Below are positions 1-38,270 of a stretch of 38,270 nt of DNA, in pieces; within the stretch, counting starts at the first letter, position 1; each line of letters starts with the position of its first letter. The notes under the pieces are model-generated. The model worked only from the letters and a program-made list of their open reading frames with translations, had not been told where the DNA came from and did no database searches. The position numbers were made by a program, and so were the translations under genes. This DNA is from Escherichia phage BUCT618. The stretch is from the sequence record OM735461.1. One strand, given 5' to 3'.

Positions 1-19
1 CCATTCCGGGCCTTTTCTT

Positions 20-2389
20 TTACCATGCTGAAAGGTTGTAGCCGGTGACCAGGTTGTCAGAGATGGCGTCTAGCGTAGGGTCAACCTGGTCGTCGTGCTT
101 TCCGTTAGGGAATACGGAGAATTCACCGATGTAGGCAGGCATCCACGGAGCATCCTTCGGCAGGTGAACAAGGCCCGCCTCAATCTGCGGCAGAACATCC
201 AGGGCGCGGGTGAATTTATCCACCGAGCGCTGAATCGGGATTACCGGCACACCCTCCATTTTCAGCGTCTGAATCAGGCCGGTTCCGCTGGCCTTATCCT
301 CAATCTTCATTCCGCGAACAACGCCACGGTTAATGGGTGATTTGTGCAAATCCCAGAATGCGCGAGCCTGTTTTATGAGGTCCGGCGCCTCCCATTTACC
401 ACGAATCTGGTCGAGCAGATAGGCGTGGCCGTTTTTGAATCCCCAGCACTGGAATACAGACCAGTCGTTGTGCTCTTTTGTTTTGAGAGCGGTATCTGCG
501 TATATAACGCGATAATCCCACTCCGGGTGCACAAAGCTGTTGTCGTACCACTGCCACCAGCTGTCTTTGAAAAGGCCGCCGCCTTTCGGTGCAGGGCGCT
601 GCATGTACTGACCAGCGAATACGTAAGGGTTACTGGCCTCCATCTCTGCCAGCTTCTCACGTGAGTGCTTAAAGGGCCACAAGGCGGTGTCATCTGGGTT
701 TACGGCAGGGATACTAAGTACATGCCACTGCTCGCCATTTCCGCCAGCCTGTAGCCATCCTGCAAGGTCTTCCTCGTGGAGTCTCTGCATGATAACGATA
801 ATTGGCGTATCAGGGCTGTTCAGGCGTGATTCCATCGTGGTCTGGAACCAGTCAATGACATTCTGCCGCATGGTGTCAGAATTGGCCTCGCTTGCCTTAT
901 GCGGGTCATCAATTATGATACAGTTAGATACAACGGCACCTGTTTGTGATAATATGAAGTTGTTGTTATCTTCAACCCCTAAACAATAGGTTTCATCAAC
1001 ATGACCGATATACTCAACGAAACATGGCTGACCATCCCCAACACCAATGGGCTTTACGAGGTTTCCGATGCTGGAAATGTCAGAAGGACACGTCCCATCC
1101 GAGCGCTTAAGCCTTCTGTTGACTCCAAAGGATACTTGAGAGTCAACCTTTCCGTTGGCGGTAAGGTCACCTGCAAATACATCGCTCACCTTGTCGCTGA
1201 GAATTTTATAGGCGAAAGGCCCCATAAGAATGAGGTTAGGCACCTGGACGGGAACCCCATGAATAACACCCTTAGCAATCTCGCGTATGGCACTAAGTCC
1301 GACAACATGCAGGACGCTTTGCGGCATGGAACATTCCCCGTGCTCGAAAGAAGACCAGGAGCAGTCCTCGACAGAGTAAAGGTTGTTGAAATATTCCAGA
1401 GCGCCGATGATGCTAAAACTCTCGCTGCCAGGTACGGAGTTAGCGTCGGGGTTATCAGGCAGATCAAACTCAGACAGACATGGCGTAGCGTCACGAATGG
1501 ATTGCCTGATGCTCGGTGGAATGCAAAGCCAAAGCACTCGAAGGAAGTGATAAAAATCGCCATCGACCGGCGCTACAGCAGGGAAGAGGCTTGCAGACTC
1601 ACCGGACTTTCTTTGCACCAGATTAAGAGGCTTCGCAAGATGAATGGCGGAGACCCATCCGGCATCGGTTAATATTTCATGATCAGGAGTGCACTCAAAT
1701 GAAGACCCATCATCAAAGTGCACTCTTATAATGTCATTGCCAGGGTTTACCCACTTGTGAGTGATCCGCTTAACTTCAGCAACCTGATTATTCTCATTGA
1801 ATGAGTTTACCTCCATGACACCGCTGTGGATTATGTCATAGATGGATAGCTCTCCGTCAGGAGTGGAAATAATCTGGCTAGCTGGGAAGCAACCGCCGAA
1901 GCCTTCACGCAGTTTACCTGCGCCATACCCTGTGATAGTCCCGTCCGAACCGGTGGCATAGACGCAGCCGCCGGTTTTGGTGCGCCACTCGTCTTTAGCC
2001 TTAGCGTCCGGCATCATGCCGATGTCGCCGAATACGGCACGGTACTCTTCAGACATGGCAATGGCGCGGGCCTGGTAGGTGTTATTTGCTGCAAGGCGCT
2101 TGGAGTAGCTGGCGTGGATAAATTCGCAGTCAGGATAGTTCCCGATAGCCCAGGCCATGAAGTTGACCACAGCAAGCTCGGTCTTTGAGTAGCGAGGGGG
2201 GATATTGATAATCAGGCGTTTGTACTGTCCGATAAAGCACCGCTCGAGCGCCTCGCAGATTTTCGCATGATGCCAGTTCTCCACAAAGTCAAAGCCCTTG
2301 CGGGCCTTGAACATGTATTTGGAAAACTCAAGCAGGTCACATCGCAGGGTAGCGATGTCGTCGGCGGAAAGTTTAATCTCTTGAGCCAT
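20..2389 (-). CDS. terL: Terminase large subunit precursor (166-aa N-extein + 323-aa intein + 300-aa C-extein; mature product would be 466 aa)
   Basis: Uninterrupted 789-codon ORF. Walker-A-like IPPRYSKTE and Walker B CIIIDDPHK. C-terminal nuclease-like region. SD GAAGGAAG upstream of the ATG. Start overlaps the TerS stop. Confidence 0.9.
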   Translation of the reverse strand: MAQEIKLSADDIATLRCDLLEFSKYMFKARKGFDFVENWHHAKICEALERCFIGQYKRLIINIPPRYSKTELAVVNFMAWAIGNYPDCEFIHASYSKRLAANNTYQARAIAMSEEYRAVFGDIGMMPDAKAKDEWRTKTGGCVYATGSDGTITGYGAGKLREGFGGCFPASQIISTPDGELSIYDIIHSGVMEVNSFNENNQVAEVKRITHKWVNPGNDIIRVHFDDGSSFECTPDHEILTDAGWVSAIHLAKPLNLVQRKSGESASLFPAVAPVDGDFYHFLRVLWLCIPPSIRQSIRDATPCLSEFDLPDNPDANSVPGSESFSIIGALEYFNNLYSVEDCSWSSFEHGECSMPQSVLHVVGLSAIREIAKGVIHGVPVQVPNLILMGPFAYKILSDKVSDVFAGDLTANGKVDSQVSFGVNRRLKRSDGTCPSDISSIGNLVKPIGVGDGQPCFVEYIGHVDETYCLGVEDNNNFILSQTGAVVSNCIIIDDPHKASEANSDTMRQNVIDWFQTTMESRLNSPDTPIIVIMQRLHEEDLAGWLQAGGNGEQWHVLSIPAVNPDDTALWPFKHSREKLAEMEASNPYVFAGQYMQRPAPKGGGLFKDSWWQWYDNSFVHPEWDYRVIYADTALKTKEHNDWSVFQCWGFKNGHAYLLDQIRGKWEAPDLIKQARAFWDLHKSPINRGVVRGMKIEDKASGTGLIQTLKMEGVPVIPIQRSVDKFTRALDVLPQIEAGLVHLPKDAPWMPAYIGEFSVFPNGKHDDQVDPTLDAISDNLVTGYNLSAW
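945..955 (+). promoter_or_regulatory. Candidate extended -10 promoter (tGTGATAATAT) for the antisense HNH gene
   Basis: TG-n-TAATAT lies 46 nt upstream of the HNH ATG. It shares the GTGATA core with candidate late promoters at 30331-30339 and 23344-23352. Confidence 0.3.
1001..1672 (+). CDS. HNH homing endonuclease (NUMOD4-like N-terminus, HNH_3-like core, two C-terminal HTH-like segments), encoded antisense inside the intein
   Basis: WLTIPNTNGLYEVSDAGNVRR; GYLRVNL..YIAHLVAENFIG..EVRHLDGNPMNNTLSNLAYGTKSDNMQD; ARYGVSVGVIRQIK and ACRLTGLSLHQIKRLRK. Confidence 0.85.
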   Translation: MTDILNETWLTIPNTNGLYEVSDAGNVRRTRPIRALKPSVDSKGYLRVNLSVGGKVTCKYIAHLVAENFIGERPHKNEVRHLDGNPMNNTLSNLAYGTKSDNMQDALRHGTFPVLERRPGAVLDRVKVVEIFQSADDAKTLAARYGVSVGVIRQIKLRQTWRSVTNGLPDARWNAKPKHSKEVIKIAIDRRYSREEACRLTGLSLHQIKRLRKMNGGDPSGIG

Positions 2390-2999
2390 ACTTCCTTCTG
2401 AGCGCCTCAGTTACATCTGAGCCTTGTGGTGACATTGAACCGTCGCTTGAGATGTGGTTGACGGTTTCTTTGTATCCGCCAAGCATCTTGATGAGCATAT
2501 CCTGCGCCTTCTGCTGGTCTGCCATCTCGAACTTCGGACCCATCTTCGTGAAGGTGATGCCTTTGATGAGTCCGCGAATCTCTTCGGGTACTTCATCAGA
2601 TGACATCTTCACGACCGGCACAGCCATCTCACCAATCACCTCGCCGTCCTCGTTCACCATTGGGCGTTTCTCCCATCCGATGAACTGAGTCACGTCGGCA
2701 AACGCCTGAGCCTGGATGCGTGATGCAATTTCGTCAAGGCTCATGAGTTTTGACTTGGCAATAAGCCTGCGAGCCTCGCGGATGTATGGGCCGACTTTTG
2801 GATGGGTCAGCAATTTGCATCCAGCGACTACGGCAGACTTATATGCTACATCTTCGCCATAAGCATGGAGATACGCTCTCGTTGCGTTACCATTAGCAAT
2901 ATAATGATTAGCAAATGTTAAATGGTCTTTACTCAGTTGAGCCGCCATTTCCTCAAGCTCAGGCGTGAAGAAAGGCAGCTTATCGTCTGCCTCTGCCAT
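2373..2999 (-). CDS. terS: Terminase small subunit
   Basis: N-terminal HTH-like FANHYIANGNATRAYLHAYG typical of Terminase_2-type small subunits. SD AAGGAGG. Sits directly upstream of and overlapping terL. Confidence 0.8.
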   Translation of the reverse strand: MAEADDKLPFFTPELEEMAAQLSKDHLTFANHYIANGNATRAYLHAYGEDVAYKSAVVAGCKLLTHPKVGPYIREARRLIAKSKLMSLDEIASRIQAQAFADVTQFIGWEKRPMVNEDGEVIGEMAVPVVKMSSDEVPEEIRGLIKGITFTKMGPKFEMADQQKAQDMLIKMLGGYKETVNHISSDGSMSPQGSDVTEALRRKYGSRD

Positions 3000-3000
3000 G

Positions 3001-3201
3001 TCAATCCTCCTTCACCAGCACCAGTTTAAACCGTGAACGAGCGACTTTCTCGCCATAGTTATGGATGGCGCGCGGGTTTGGTGTATTAAAACTTTTACTG
3101 CGGCCCGGAGTAATGAATACATCCTCGCCATTAGCCGCAGCATCCATTGCTTCCTTCATGCCGTTACGGATAAAGTCACGCGGGGTAAATTGTTTCATCA
3201 T
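3001..3201 (-). CDS. Hypothetical small protein, first gene of the packaging operon
   Basis: 66-aa ORF. SD AAAGGA. Its stop lies 1 nt from the TerS ATG. Confidence 0.55.
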   Translation of the reverse strand: MMKQFTPRDFIRNGMKEAMDAAANGEDVFITPGRSKSFNTPNPRAIHNYGEKVARSRFKLVLVKED

Positions 3202-25350: not shown

Positions 25351-26379
25351 TTAAATCCCGTTAGTTACAGTAACAGACAGCGGGAAGTATACCACAACGC
25401 CAGCGGTTGCCAGGTAGCCATCCACCACAGTTGCCAGGTTGCGAGCTTCTGGCGGCATCATGGTAAACGGTTTTGGAACCTCAACGCCGAGCTTCTCGGA
25501 ATCGTTGCGATAGTGAATCATAGCGCTGTTGGTCTGACCGGTTCCCTGCGGACCCAGCCATTCCACGGTTTCAACCGTGATTTCCGGGTAGGATTTCTTG
25601 AAGCGCTCCATCGCATTCTCGCCGGTGTTATCGGTGAAGAATGTGGTGCGGGCACGCTCATAGCTCGCAGATGTCATGACGACGGTATCAGGACGCTCAG
25701 CGCCGATGGTGTCTGTCGCCTGCTGGGTAATTGGGTAAACCAGGTCAGCATAGATTTCTTCTGCTGTTTTAGTTGCCCAGGTCGATGTACCCTTCGCGCC
25801 GTTTGTTGCGGTGCGAGTGGTAACGTTCGGCGCGTTATACAGACCGGTAAGACCAGTTTCAGCATCGCCAACCCAGATGATCTGGTCCAGCTTCTGCTCT
25901 GCTGCATTTCGGATCGCCATACCCTTACGGTCAACGATATTCATGCCAGCAACGGTTGCTTTGGCGATTTCGAATACGCTGTAAATAATCGAGCCACCGA
26001 ATGCACGGATGTTTACAACCTTCTTCTCGCCAGTGACCTCGATGTTTGGCAGGTCGTCGGCGTAGTTGGTGATGTGCTCCAGCATACCAACGCGGTCAGC
26101 GACAGTGTAGGCAAACTCTTCAGCACCGAATGGCGCTTCGTTCTGCATAGGCAGCAGGTTTTTACCCTTGAATTGCGGGTATGCCTTCTCCCGGATGCGG
26201 TTAGACATCGCCTGCAACTGCTGCGCAAAGATAACACCGGTTGCGGCATCAGCACGGAAGCCAAGCTGTTGCACATCCAGCGCTTTAGATACCAGGCTCG
26301 CCAGCATGGTAGGAGTGGTTTCCCAGCCCGCATCCAGCTTCACGCCCTTAAGATGATCCAGTCGTAAATTGATATTCAT
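25351..26379 (-). CDS. Major capsid protein
   Basis: 342 aa. Position after the scaffold and decoration genes and before a terminator. No TTA/CTA/TCA across codons 5-288, the span covered by the register-frame antisense ORF 25513-26367. Confidence 0.75.
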   Translation of the reverse strand: MNINLRLDHLKGVKLDAGWETTPTMLASLVSKALDVQQLGFRADAATGVIFAQQLQAMSNRIREKAYPQFKGKNLLPMQNEAPFGAEEFAYTVADRVGMLEHITNYADDLPNIEVTGEKKVVNIRAFGGSIIYSVFEIAKATVAGMNIVDRKGMAIRNAAEQKLDQIIWVGDAETGLTGLYNAPNVTTRTATNGAKGTSTWATKTAEEIYADLVYPITQQATDTIGAERPDTVVMTSASYERARTTFFTDNTGENAMERFKKSYPEITVETVEWLGPQGTGQTNSAMIHYRNDSEKLGVEVPKPFTMMPPEARNLATVVDGYLATAGVVVYFPLSVTVTNGI

Positions 26380-36356: not shown

Positions 36357-36395
36357 TTGGTTAAGCGAGGTTATGACGATTATGGAGAAGTTTCG

Positions 36396-38258
36396 ATGAT
36401 TACAAATGATGGTGTTAAGTTAATTCATGGTGATTGCCTGGAGGTGCTGAAGGGAATGCCAGACAATTCCGTGGATAGCATAGTCACAGACCCGCCTTAT
36501 GGACTTTCATTCATGGGGAAGAAATGGGACTACGAAGTTCCTGACCAGGCTATCTGGGAGGAATGCCTACGCGTCCTTAAGCCTGGTGGTCATCTGCTGG
36601 CCTTTGCTGGTACACGAACGCAGCACCGCATGGCTGTTCGCATTGAGGACGCTGGGTTCGAGATACGGGACATGATTGCATGGGTATATGGCAGCGGGTT
36701 TCCTAAAAGTGCGAACGTTTCAAAGCAGATAGACCAGCAAGAAAGAAACAGATGGGTTAAAATCATCAAGGCGATTGATAAAACAAACCTTTCTGAAATG
36801 GCTGAACTATGGATAAACTCAAGAAATGCGAATGCTGCGGGGCTTTCATTCCAAAGGAATCAAACCGAAGCTGGGCTCAATACGCAAAAAAACGGTTTTG
36901 CTCACGGAAGTGTTCTGCTTCAAGTCAGTCACAAAAACTGCGATGCGCTTGCAGTCATTGCGGAACTAAATTCGACCGAAGCCCATCCCACAAGCGAGGG
37001 GAATTGCAGTTCTGCACAATCGAATGCCGAAAGCACTATCACGGCATCGAAAAGCCATGCGACCACTGCGGAAAAATCACCAGAAAACCGCGAAGCAACG
37101 CTGTGCATGGTGGATTTTTCTGCTCTACACAGTGCATGGGGCTGGCAAGGCGAAAGCAGGGCGGACAAACTCAAGGCCGTCGAAGCCCTGAAGATTTGGC
37201 TTGGAAGAAAGCCATCCTCAAGGCGGGAGGCTACAAGTGCGCTATGTGCGGCACTGACAGACGACTTGAAGCGCATCACGTTAAGCCAATCAAAGACTTT
37301 CCTGAGCTACGACACGACACGTCAAATGGCTTGTGCGTCTGCCATCAGTGCCACTATTACGGAATCCACGGCGGCAAGCCTAATTTCATTCACGGCAGGT
37401 ACTCTAAAAAGTAAGGCCATCGACAAGGCGGCTGGTGCGGAGCGCGAGGTGGTCGGCAGCTACGAGGTGACTCGCGACATGTCTGGCGGATCATGGGCGG
37501 AACTTCACGGAAAACCGAACAGCGCCAAGATGCACAACATAACCGCACCAGCCACCGACGCCGCAAAACAGTGGCAAGGCTGGGGTACAGCCCTAAAGCC
37601 AGCACTTGAACCAATCACCGTAGCACGCAAGCCGTTCAAAGGCACTGTGGCGGCTAACGTGATGGAGTGGGGAACGGGGGCGCTGAATATTGATGGGTGC
37701 AGGGTGGTGGGGGATGTTTGGACTAGAAGAACACCTTATAAAGACAACATCAAAGGCGGACAGCTTCACGCCGCAAAAAGTGAATCAACCTACGCATGCG
37801 GCCCTCAATCTTGCAATGAATTGGGGCGCTGGCCCGCGAACCTGATTCACGACGGAAGCCATGAGGTGATGTCGGAGTTTCCTGCAAATGTTGTCGCGAA
37901 CGGAGGTAGCGGCGTATTTAACCAGCACGCATGGATGCGCTACGAGACGCCGCAGAACATCAATCGCAGCAAAGGCAGCGCAGCTCGCTTCTTCTACTGC
38001 GCTAAGGCCAGCAAGAAAGACCGAGGCGAAGGTAATAACCACCCTACCGTCAAGCCAACCGACCTCATGGCGTACCTTTGCCGCCTTGTAACGCCTCCTG
38101 GTGGCGTGGTTCTCGACCCGTTCATGGGCAGCGGTAGCACCGGCAAGGCAGCCGTGCGCGAAGGCTTCCGCTTCATCGGCATTGAAATGGACGCGGAGTA
38201 CCTTGCAATCGCTGAGGCGAGAATTGCGCATGATGCAGGGAAGCAGACTGAGAAATAA
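36396..38258 (+). CDS. Beta-class N6-adenine/N4-cytosine DNA methyltransferase carrying a 215-codon read-through insertion
   Basis: Motif IV SIVTDPPYGL near the N-terminus. Motif I VLDPFMGSGSTGKAA near the C-terminus. ATG 36396 with SD GGAGAAG (track ORF starts at an upstream TTG). The frame is open across 36768-37427. Confidence 0.8.
   Translation: MITNDGVKLIHGDCLEVLKGMPDNSVDSIVTDPPYGLSFMGKKWDYEVPDQAIWEECLRVLKPGGHLLAFAGTRTQHRMAVRIEDAGFEIRDMIAWVYGSGFPKSANVSKQIDQQERNRWVKIIKAIDKTNLSEMAELWINSRNANAAGLSFQRNQTEAGLNTQKNGFAHGSVLLQVSHKNCDALAVIAELNSTEAHPTSEGNCSSAQSNAESTITASKSHATTAEKSPENREATLCMVDFSALHSAWGWQGESRADKLKAVEALKIWLGRKPSSRREATSALCAALTDDLKRITLSQSKTFLSYDTTRQMACASAISATITESTAASLISFTAGTLKSKAIDKAAGAEREVVGSYEVTRDMSGGSWAELHGKPNSAKMHNITAPATDAAKQWQGWGTALKPALEPITVARKPFKGTVAANVMEWGTGALNIDGCRVVGDVWTRRTPYKDNIKGGQLHAAKSESTYACGPQSCNELGRWPANLIHDGSHEVMSEFPANVVANGGSGVFNQHAWMRYETPQNINRSKGSAARFFYCAKASKKDRGEGNNHPTVKPTDLMAYLCRLVTPPGGVVLDPFMGSGSTGKAAVREGFRFIGIEMDAEYLAIAEARIAHDAGKQTEK
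36768..37427 (+). mobile_element. In-frame HEG-bearing insertion in the methyltransferase gene, bounded by duplicated KAIDK codons
   Basis: aag gcg att gat aaa (36768-36782) versus aag gcc atc gac aag (37413-37427). Same peptide, four synonymous differences, spaced exactly 645 nt apart. Confidence 0.6.
36809..37414 (+). CDS. HNH endonuclease with three N-terminal zinc-ribbon repeats, nested in the +1 frame of the methyltransferase ORF
   Basis: Three repeats: CECCG..FCSRKC / CSHCG..FCTIEC / CDHCG..FCSTQC. HNH core YKCAMCGTDRRLEAHHVKPIKDFPELRHDTSNGLCVCHQCH. Confidence 0.8.
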   Translation: MDKLKKCECCGAFIPKESNRSWAQYAKKRFCSRKCSASSQSQKLRCACSHCGTKFDRSPSHKRGELQFCTIECRKHYHGIEKPCDHCGKITRKPRSNAVHGGFFCSTQCMGLARRKQGGQTQGRRSPEDLAWKKAILKAGGYKCAMCGTDRRLEAHHVKPIKDFPELRHDTSNGLCVCHQCHYYGIHGGKPNFIHGRYSKK

Positions 38259-38270
38259 AATAAACAAGGC

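Follow-up and report, generated by a model that had tools for sequence, protein, structure and literature searches.

An intein in the large terminase gene of Escherichia phage BUCT618 with a predicted HNH homing endonuclease gene on its opposite strand

How can the gene of a large terminase subunit (TerL, gene terL) be read as one uninterrupted open reading frame (ORF) if a complete gene for a different protein lies within it on the other strand, and what could such an arrangement be? The question is raised by a locus in the 38,270-nucleotide DNA of Escherichia phage BUCT618 (record OM735461.1; this whole stretch is hereafter called the window), in which a minus-strand terL ORF of 789 codons is interrupted at Walker B by 323 codons having the hallmarks of an intein, while the plus strand of that same segment encodes a 223-residue protein of the HNH endonuclease type. 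An earlier interpretation made from the letters alone, the sequence-only reading, proposed that this is a contiguous intein carrying its endonuclease gene in antisense, the intein linker being the reverse-frame read-through of that gene. Its statements about the sequence all hold on re-analysis (ORF list, registers, alignments, Pfam) and the proposal itself is borne out by a profile of the HINT splicing domain, by the ratios of nonsynonymous to synonymous substitution (dN/dS) in the two frames and by the persistence of the open frame in the relatives. The interpretation favored here, to which we assign a probability of roughly 0.8, is that of a composite mobile element residing in the terL of a tailed phage and consisting of a splicing intein and a separate, antisense homing endonuclease. 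The coordinates of its parts are collected in Table 1.

When it is aligned with TerL proteins that lack an intein, those of Pseudomonas phage MR14, Idiomarinaceae phage 1N2-2 and Yersinia phage fEV-1, the terL product shows one clean insertion of 323 residues between FGG and (A→C)IIIDDPHK, the Ala of the uninterrupted proteins being replaced by Cys in the window. The viral contigs L050–L054, whose N-exteins are 92–100% identical to that of the window, read GFGG/AIIIDDPHK (here and below a slash marks the junction) and have no intein; two of them, L050 and L051, are colinear with the window and 93.5% identical to it in terL DNA, the sole structural difference being a 969-nt insertion, recovered precisely at GFGG/C, together with GCA (Ala) as opposed to TGT (Cys) at position +1. 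The empty site in these two contigs reads GAAGGCTTCGGCGGC/GCAATCATAATTGATGAT. The HNH ORF, in turn, is antisense to intein residues 74–297 and in exact codon register with terL, its ATG (1001–1003) being the complement of the intein His297 codon CAT and its TAA (1670–1672) that of the Leu74 codon TTA, so that register and end points are confirmed at the codon level.

The arrangement is not confined to the window. Homologues of the HNH protein, ranging from 97% down to about 35% identity, are found in metagenomes, and the same layout, i.e., the HNH gene antisense, in register 0, inside the TerL ORF, recurs in about 35 metagenomic phage loci (L005–L019, L023–L031, L035, L038, L043–L047, L075 and L087–88) with HNH identities of 30–97%. 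The loci were obtained from contigs encoding HNH homologues and a scan of viral contigs with an HNH alignment (L005–L042), from a scan of genome bins of bacteria and archaea (L043–L049) and from a scan for TerL relatives (L075, L087–88). In every locus with complete flanks the minus-strand ORF has 750–1250 codons and encodes TerL plus intein, and the inteins of the relatives have 323–364 residues (440 in L038), start with CF followed by P, S or G and end with Asn, which precedes a Cys at Walker B. Close relatives with a minus frame interrupted by stops inside the HNH gene had been singled out by the sequence-only reading as evidence that would speak against it; such stops occur in none of the about 35 loci. 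An exhaustive HMMER search with the 323-residue intein returned 323 cluster representatives at E ≤ 1e-3, and several dozen of the matches are proteins of 770–1160 residues that cover the whole intein, linker included. In a catalogue of 5.8 billion proteins, a word-index search with the intein alone gave no match and the family profile retrieved just two full precursors, a paucity probably due to the splitting of terL by gene callers; the gene calls of L005 and L006 consist of the HNH gene and a C-terminal piece of terL only. The 50,697 isolate phage records searched yielded no member of the family: DNA searches with positions 1–3000 and 923–1891 gave zero matches to isolate phages and tblastn with the intein gave only generic N-terminal intein matches. 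A scan of viral contigs with intein peptides returned L001 only, an unrelated intein with an in-frame HNH. The assignment of a host through genome matches was abandoned, all seven matches being metagenome bins with inconsistent taxon labels, and no host is inferred.

Selection changes strand along the intein. Substitution patterns and dN/dS in both frames were determined for 15 pairs of loci, and the ranges given here summarize 13 of the 15. Within the splicing blocks the changes fall mostly at position 3 of the minus-strand codons, and dN/dS amounts to 0.03–0.2 in the minus frame (0.03–0.12 in the C-terminal splicing region) and to about 1 or more in the plus (HNH) frame. Within the linker the changes fall mostly at minus position 1, which is position 3 of the HNH codons, and dN/dS becomes 0.8–3.3 in the minus frame and 0.07–0.2 in the HNH frame. 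In the clearest pair, L027/L029, the N-terminal splicing block has 7, 2 and 22 changes at minus positions 1, 2 and 3, respectively, with a minus-frame dN/dS of 0.09, and the linker has 53, 5 and 7, with a dN/dS of 0.07 in the HNH frame and 3.3 in the minus frame; the switch is weak in the closest (window/L007) and in the most divergent (L030/L035) of the pairs. The linker peptide is neutral read-through, the sole constraint on it being the absence of stops, and it is the HNH protein that is under purifying selection. Confidence in the architecture and in selection on both strands is very high.

Could the open minus frame have arisen by chance? As a consequence of the antisense codon register, a minus-frame stop can originate only from the HNH codons TTA, CTA and TCA, none of which occurs among the 20 Leu and 13 Ser codons of the HNH ORF in the window. 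The probability of this is 0.022 with the codon usage of the terL exteins and about 5e-4 to 1e-3 with the window-wide usage, so that the statistic of this single window is moderately strong and suggestive only. How little such an open frame proves by itself is shown by the major capsid gene (25351–26379, minus strand), which also has one: 337 of its consecutive codons are free of TTA, CTA and TCA, and the resulting in-register antisense ORF (25513–26367, plus strand, 284 residues) has no family match and is most likely a chance shadow ORF. More telling are the relatives. In the nested HNH genes of 21 loci the three codons occur 0 times in about 5000 codons, as opposed to 62 times in 1882 codons (3.3%) of free-standing HNH relatives, and the antisense frames of ten such free-standing relatives, which serve as a control, are closed every few dozen codons. 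Since the open frame is conserved across the family, chance is untenable. As TTA, CTA and TCA all have synonyms, the intein frame can stay open while the endonuclease protein remains unconstrained; judging by the code table, some amino-acid pairs would be ruled out in the other two antisense registers, such as Phe followed by a residue with an A-initial codon.

The same data bear on the notion that the locus is a fractured gene, in which terL and its intein are split into two halves with a free-standing endonuclease gene placed between them, the continuous ORF being a coincidence. Arrangements of this kind are known in metagenomes (PMC2677866) and in L005 and L006 the gene callers do split terL at this point; however, a fractured gene would account neither for a minus frame that is open in all these loci nor for the avoidance of the three codons in nested as opposed to free-standing genes, and a start codon and a ribosome-binding site for the C-terminal half are neither needed nor conserved. 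We consider the chances of this explanation next to negligible.

Is the segment that is kept open really an intein? Residues C1, F2, G13, N49, C67, T68, H71, T75, C303, L304 and N323 are invariant in an alignment of 18 family inteins that are 23–49% identical, which agrees with the initial Cys and the block B CTPDH recognized, along with a +1 Cys, by the sequence-only reading. The intein of the window ends with ETYCLGVEDNNNFILSQTGAVVSN/C, and the Cys+1 is present in every locus with a mapped splice junction. The family profile matches the N-terminal part of solved inteins in the PDB, NrdJ-1 with 5e-16 and DnaE, DnaX, RecA and DnaB as well (range ~1e-15 to 1e-10), with T68 and H71 of CTPDH aligning to the TxxH of block B of the NrdJ-1 and DnaE inteins. 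When the linker columns are removed, the resulting 127-position profile aligns end to end with the mini-inteins 7qil 10–136 (1.4e-15), 7cfv 6–137 and PI-MtuI 17–139. The minus-strand linker, already described as motif-less, gave zero family matches in a profile search, the sole intein match being that of the N-terminal splicing region. The region between the splicing blocks is the usual seat of the endonuclease domains or of the split sites of inteins. Judged from these alignments, the splicing domain is complete and the antisense gene occupies the position normally taken by an endonuclease domain or a split site.

Two other identities were considered for the insertion and rejected. A group I or group II intron finds no Rfam match within positions 1–3200 and the ORF is continuous. 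Class 3 (WCT) inteins have Trp at position 12 of block B, Cys at position 4 of block F and Thr at position 5 of block G and are usually devoid of an N-terminal nucleophile (PMC2807308); only the block F Cys fits here, position 12 of block B being Ile, Val or Phe, position 5 of block G being Val or Leu, and Cys1 being invariant.

A further possibility is that the insertion does not splice at all, being either a tolerated surface loop of TerL comparable to that of ShiLan or part of a terL that is dead in a defective element. The window itself offers a precedent in its methylase, which has a stop-free insertion that is not an intein and hides an out-of-frame HNH. Yet the terL insertion breaks the Walker B β-strand of the ATPase core; the nucleophiles and the block B Thr/His are invariant in the 18 members and blocks A, B, F and G are under strong purifying selection; the Ala+1 of the empty alleles becomes Cys exactly where splicing needs a Cys; and TerL inteins located at Walker B do splice in reporter assays (PMC5050341). 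A non-splicing insertion is hardly credible in view of these facts, and there is good confidence that the intein would splice.

As to the protein encoded by the plus strand, Pfam assigns to it NUMOD4 with 40.1 bits (gathering score 23.4) and HNH_3 with 37.6 bits (gathering score 24.8), which upholds these two parts of the domain assignment made by the sequence-only reading, whereas two helix-turn-helix segments, also listed there, correspond to Pfam matches below threshold. The PHROG family phrog_59 (HNH endonuclease) matches the nested ORF at 3e-46. An AlphaFold model built with 34 homologues has a mean predicted local distance difference test score (pLDDT) of 87.6, and its sole strong match in the PDB is I-HmuI (1u3e; Foldseek E 5e-9, probability 1.0, 167 aligned columns). 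The catalytic His and the metal-binding Asn of the ββα-metal core (H81, N93 and N102) are invariant in the 34 homologues, and the ORF of the window is full length and keeps every invariant catalytic residue. The C-terminal tail (~residues 209–223), which is antisense to HINT residues 74–88, is variable and modeled with low confidence; here it is the intein frame that dominates. According to its domain profiles and predicted fold, the nested protein is an I-HmuI-like NUMOD4/HNH homing endonuclease, and we have moderate confidence that the enzyme is active in this particular phage.

An HNH protein encoded next to a terminase could also serve packaging, like the HNH proteins that assist HK97-like terminases, and be sited within terL for the sake of co-regulation. 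HNH genes beside terminase genes are common (PMC3592412), and in L020 (2405–2986), L022 (4004–4606) and L032 (4001–4537) a free-standing relative of the nested gene lies immediately upstream of terL, in divergent orientation, so that this HNH lineage is associated with terminase genes both as a free and as a nested gene. What makes a role as packaging accessory very unlikely is that phages with 93.5% identical terL have no such gene at the site and that the fold and the domains are those of the homing nickase I-HmuI, not those of the small zinc-ribbon HNH of cos phages. A rough neighbor-joining tree, too crude to settle monophyly, places four non-nested sequences within the clade of nested HNH proteins: the free-standing L020, L022 and L032, and L048, in which only part of the HNH gene is covered by an open intein frame.

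Does the element move? Besides the empty alleles described above, a comparison with the intein-bearing L043, which is 92.5% identical to the window over positions 1–2458, is informative. Codons changed at a silent position number 107/466 in the exteins and 10/224 in the HNH gene (Fisher p 6e-11), a difference for which dual coding could in part account. Given that the linker frame evolves neutrally in other respects, the copies of the element seem to share an ancestor more recent than that of their host genes. The precise absence from close relatives and the apparent youth of the intein point to a mobile element. In L019 (4001–4714) the HNH frame is broken by a single AAA→TAA change relative to L016 and the intein frame is open; in L045 (3501–3674) the HNH frame ends after 58 codons, the intein frame again being open, and decay is probable. 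The presence of a decayed HNH gene within a retained intein frame in L019, and probably in L045, fits a homing cycle. In five intein-less terL genes (L056, L063, L071, L080 and L084) position +1 is Cys instead of Ala, within GFGG-C(I/V)(I/L)(I/V)DDP; these may be either traces left when an intein was precisely lost or alleles that were already permissive for the intein.

The putative expression signals of the endonuclease are located in the antisense of the C-terminal splicing blocks. Opposite the ATG of the HNH gene lies the codon of a nearly invariant intein His (GH..) that has no counterpart in standard inteins, and 8–11 bases 5′ of this ATG nearly all nested loci have a purine-rich xAGG(T/A) motif that is the antisense of the Thr/Ser-Phe/Tyr codons immediately preceding the block F Cys. 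A scan of the plus strand with a sigma-70-like consensus revealed promoter-like sites within 110 nt 5′ of the ATG in 15/21 nested loci with at least 9/12 matches (5.4% of background windows) and in 8/21 with at least 10/12 matches (1.2% of background windows), an enrichment that counts for less than these figures would suggest, the loci being homologous, the samples not independent and the TATGAT hexamer overlapping the conserved Asn-His-Asn codons. This hexamer, found in most clades 34 nt 5′ of the ATG, would be the −10 element and is the antisense of those block F codons, and near-consensus −35 elements (TTGACA, TTGACT) lie 17 nt upstream of it. When the ends of the window are joined (38240–38270 + 1–30), a hairpin emerges, AGGCCC-AUUCC-GGGCCU followed by UUUUCUUUU (−12.8 kcal/mol, z −2.4), which looks like a bidirectional terminator placed between the convergent methylase (plus) and terL (minus) genes. 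Because transcripts of the upstream plus-strand genes would end at such a hairpin and not run on into the antisense of terL, the simplest source of HNH mRNA would be an internal promoter, which is proposed tentatively. The same hairpin is a hint that the 38.3 kb of the window represent a complete, circularly permuted genome.

Part of the conservation of the intein, namely that of His297 and of the Thr-Phe/Tyr preceding the block F Cys, may be the imprint of the ATG and of the Shine-Dalgarno-like motif of the other strand. A broader proposal, to which we would give somewhat less than even odds, is that the family is not a passing outcome of the entry of an endonuclease gene into an intein but an old, widespread and interlocked lineage in which the HNH gene became permanently antisense in the one codon register that leaves its amino-acid sequence free and has its signals (−10, ribosome-binding site, ATG) in the antisense of blocks F/G, so that neither partner could easily be lost or replaced alone. 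Were this true, the conservation of His297, Thr-Phe/Tyr and Asn-His-Asn would in part be the imprint of the expression signals of the endonuclease, and the lineage would be the first case of the HNH type and the first outside actinophages and cyanobacteria, systematically mis-called as split terL in metagenomes.

Several observations, in addition to the qualifications attached above to the silent divergence and to the promoter counts, weigh against the composite element. The Pfam Intein_splicing match (residues 17–80) scores 29.5 bits and stays below the gathering score of 35.8. The penultimate residue of the intein is Ser322 in the window instead of the usual His, which is found in 5/18 relatives; position 4 of block F is an invariant Cys instead of the usual Asp, though Cys1 is invariant too; and block F reads NNNF in the window as opposed to NHNF in most relatives, the block F His being missing. 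Neither the penultimate His nor the block F Asp is universal among working inteins (PMC2807308). The structure model of the precursor, obtained with a 3-sequence alignment, has a pLDDT of 34 and lends no support to a HINT fold with a disordered linker; this model being uninformative, the HINT fold rests on the profile matches to solved inteins. No gradient or tract of co-conversion is seen near the insertion site, the mismatches with respect to the intein-less alleles being evenly spread. Finally, the frame asymmetry is weak in the window/L007 and window/L043 pairs, owing to the small number of substitutions, and the TATGAT hexamer has been lost in the window, the best site of which has 9/12 matches.

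The last two points, together with the HNH decay in an open intein frame exemplified by the nonsense codon of L019 and the 58 codons of L045, would also suit the premise that the HNH gene of the window is an inactive relic, silent or without a cleaving product, and that the intein, inherited vertically, is in effect a mini-intein with a long junk linker. This is unlikely, albeit the most serious of the alternatives: the ORF of the window is full length with all its invariant catalytic residues present, it is 96–97% identical to two independent intact copies (P0001/L007 and L043), the element is present in some and absent from other phages that are 93% identical and is younger than its exteins, and the dN/dS of the HNH frame is 0.07–0.2 family-wide.

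The composite element could operate as follows. TerL would be translated from the minus strand as a 789-residue precursor in which intein residues 1–88 and about 297–323 would fold jointly into the HINT splicing domain, leaving the intervening roughly 200 residues as a functionless loop. Splicing of the class 1 type would proceed via Cys1, the block B Thr/His, Asn323 and Cys+1, with excision of the 323-residue intein and restoration of the Walker B strand GFGG-CIIIDDPHK in a TerL of 466 residues. The plus strand of the loop would yield the separate 223-residue I-HmuI-like NUMOD4/HNH endonuclease, probably from its own promoter and ribosome-binding site in the antisense of block F/G codons. The enzyme would nick or cut the Walker B coding sequence of the intein-less terL of co-infecting relatives, and recombinational repair would copy both the intein and the endonuclease gene into the cut allele.

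Table 1. Parts of the terL locus, with coordinates in the 38,270-nt window
Feature	Position	Strand	Basis
terL precursor ORF, 789 codons + stop: N-extein, intein, C-extein	20..2389	-	ORF list; phrog_38 terminase large subunit 1e-121 (PHROG); Pfam Terminase_6C
N-extein, 166 aa, N-terminal ATPase part, last residues KLREGFGG	1892..2389	-	Alignment to intein-less TerL
Intein, 323 codons; Cys1 codon 1889-1891, terminal Asn323 codon 923-925	923..1891	-	969-nt insertion relative to L050/L051; family alignment
N-terminal splicing region, intein residues 1-88; block A CFPASQ.., block B CTPDHEILT	1628..1891	-	Pfam Intein_splicing on residues 17-80; family profile; selection in relatives
Intein linker, residues 89-296, motif-less antisense read-through of the HNH gene	1004..1627	-	No family match; dN/dS in relatives
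C-terminal splicing region, residues 297-323; block F ETYCLGVEDNNNF, block G AVVSN	923..1003	-	Mini-intein profile alignment to blocks F/G of DnaE, DnaX and RecA mini-inteins
+1 Cys codon TGT, first C-extein residue; GCA (Ala) in intein-less alleles	920..922	-	Alignments to intein-less terL
C-extein, 300 aa + stop: from Walker B CIIIDDPHK on, plus nuclease domain	20..922	-	Pfam; alignment to intein-less TerL
Nested homing-endonuclease gene, 223 aa: NUMOD4 + HNH_3 core + helical C-terminal DNA-binding modules (predicted)	1001..1672	+	Pfam, phrog_59, AlphaFold model, selection
Putative Shine-Dalgarno TAGGT, 10 nt 5' of HNH ATG; antisense of block F Thr-Tyr codons	987..991	+	Motif kept in relatives; candidate
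Putative HNH promoter TAGATA-17-GATAAT with TG extension, inside antisense of blocks F/G	925..953	+	Consensus scan; candidate

The terL genes of this group display further variation. The insertion point is not the same throughout Walker B: in the window and in L018, L023–L026, L030 and L035 the junctions are GFGG/CIIIDDP, GGAII/CDDP, GDRVI/CDDPHS and YGGC/CLVDDP, so that the intein site is displaced by 3–4 residues between TerL subfamilies, being either before or after the hydrophobic strand. L031 has a second, different intein in the TerL nuclease domain (about 2180–3030, minus strand) with the junctions HDDS/CFVAG...ILVSN/CDAAS, and L080 has an insertion of about 340 residues with an in-frame domain in the downstream, nuclease-domain part of terL; given these further nuclease-domain inteins, the terL of this group can carry two of them. 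The ATPase part of the C-extein that adjoins the intein is 63–73% identical between the window or L009 and L006, L008, L010, L011 and L013, and beyond about 100 residues the same loci have two unrelated types of nuclease domain (about 30% versus 62% identity), indicating that terL is mosaic downstream of the intein site.

Elsewhere in the window, the DNA methyltransferase ORF (36357–38258, plus strand, 633 residues) matches N6_N4_Mtase in two stretches and has a motif-less insertion of ~290 residues rich in Ser, Ala and Thr, and another frame of the same strand contains a 201-residue ORF (36809–37414, plus strand) with CxxC repeats and an HNH motif (HNH_2 24.2 bits against a threshold of 21, HNH 22.0 against 21.4). 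No intein blocks were seen in the insertion of the 36357–38258 ORF, and a methylase homologue of about 345 residues in a Cylindrospermopsis virus is free of it. By analogy, this is a probable hidden HNH of the ShiLan type (PMC11855218), and the same phage may carry two different nested endonuclease genes.

Where does the terL element stand among known systems? The novelty implied by the sequence-only reading did not survive a survey of the literature, since antisense or otherwise out-of-frame endonuclease genes in contiguous inteins have already been described (bioRxiv 10.1101/2025.01.02.630785; bioRxiv 10.64898/2026.09.14.751524). The closest parallel is offered by actinophage inteins, many of them in TerL, that harbor antisense LAGLIDADG or VSR-like endonucleases, or EndoVII-like ones in another sense frame, HNH being found in frame only (Gosselin, Arsenault & Gogarten, bioRxiv 10.1101/2025.01.02.630785); as cited in that work, earlier antisense LAGLIDADG cases go back to Gorbalenya 1998 and Gogarten 2002. 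The actinophage cases and the present one have in common a contiguous intein with intact blocks, an endonuclease on the opposite strand between these blocks, a host gene that is often terL, a patchy distribution suggesting ongoing transfer, and a proposed origin in which a free-standing endonuclease gene invaded the intein (bioRxiv 10.1101/2025.01.02.630785). Unlike them, the enzyme here is I-HmuI-like NUMOD4/HNH, the carriers are uncultured non-actinophages and Walker B is the site of insertion; the strict codon register, the statistic of stop avoidance and the expression signals inside blocks F/G go beyond what was reported for the actinophages.

The cyanobacterial DnaX intein, with a LAGLIDADG gene in an overlapping +2 frame and frame-dependent selection (Phillips, DeSimone & Gogarten, bioRxiv 10.64898/2026.09.14.751524), resembles the present case in that the overlap combines a low omega in the endonuclease frame with a high omega in the intein frame and in that intein-free and intein-bearing alleles coexist; however, its overlap is on the same strand, its enzyme belongs to another family and its host gene is cellular, not of phage origin. 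With the fractured genes, in which a free-standing endonuclease gene lies between the halves of a split intein (Dassa et al. 2009, PMC2677866), the terL element shares an endonuclease of the free-standing type located between the N- and C-terminal splicing parts, but those genes are physically split and spliced in trans, whereas here one continuous ORF is kept open. In the predicted structure, the nested enzyme has the same order of N-terminal β region, HNH core and C-terminal helical part as I-HmuI and I-HmuII of Bacillus phages SPO1 and SP82 (1u3e), from which it differs in that the gene of I-HmuI lies in sense orientation within a group I intron and that the sequence identity is just 23%. 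The ShiLan-type insertions of phage DNA methylases, with their out-of-frame hidden HNH (Arsenault et al. 2025, PMC11855218), likewise keep the host ORF free of stops while another frame encodes an HNH protein, yet a splicing domain is missing from them and both of their frames are on one strand, whereas the terL element combines a complete intein with an endonuclease gene on the opposite strand. Finally, the class 3 TerL1-e inteins of mycobacteriophages, reported to splice in reporter assays (Kelley et al. 2016, PMC5050341), are also inserted in the Walker B of the TerL ATPase but belong to a different lineage of splicing domains, and an antisense endonuclease gene is not described for them in the parts of that report consulted.

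The family illustrates that an intein and an endonuclease of the free-standing type can coexist over long periods as two genes that share one stretch of DNA but are read from different strands, and it lends itself to the study of how inteins gain endonucleases ("splicing first" models) and of how antisense overlaps are maintained. It also exposes a blind spot of annotation, the HNH gene being called and terL truncated (L005, L006). No description of an antisense NUMOD4/HNH gene within an intein was found in the full-text literature, subscription journals lying outside the coverage. Compared with the published antisense cases, the family is larger and better resolved, and may be older, yet it embodies no new principle; what is new, within the searchable literature, is the antisense HNH version of the arrangement and its occurrence outside actinophages and cyanobacteria.

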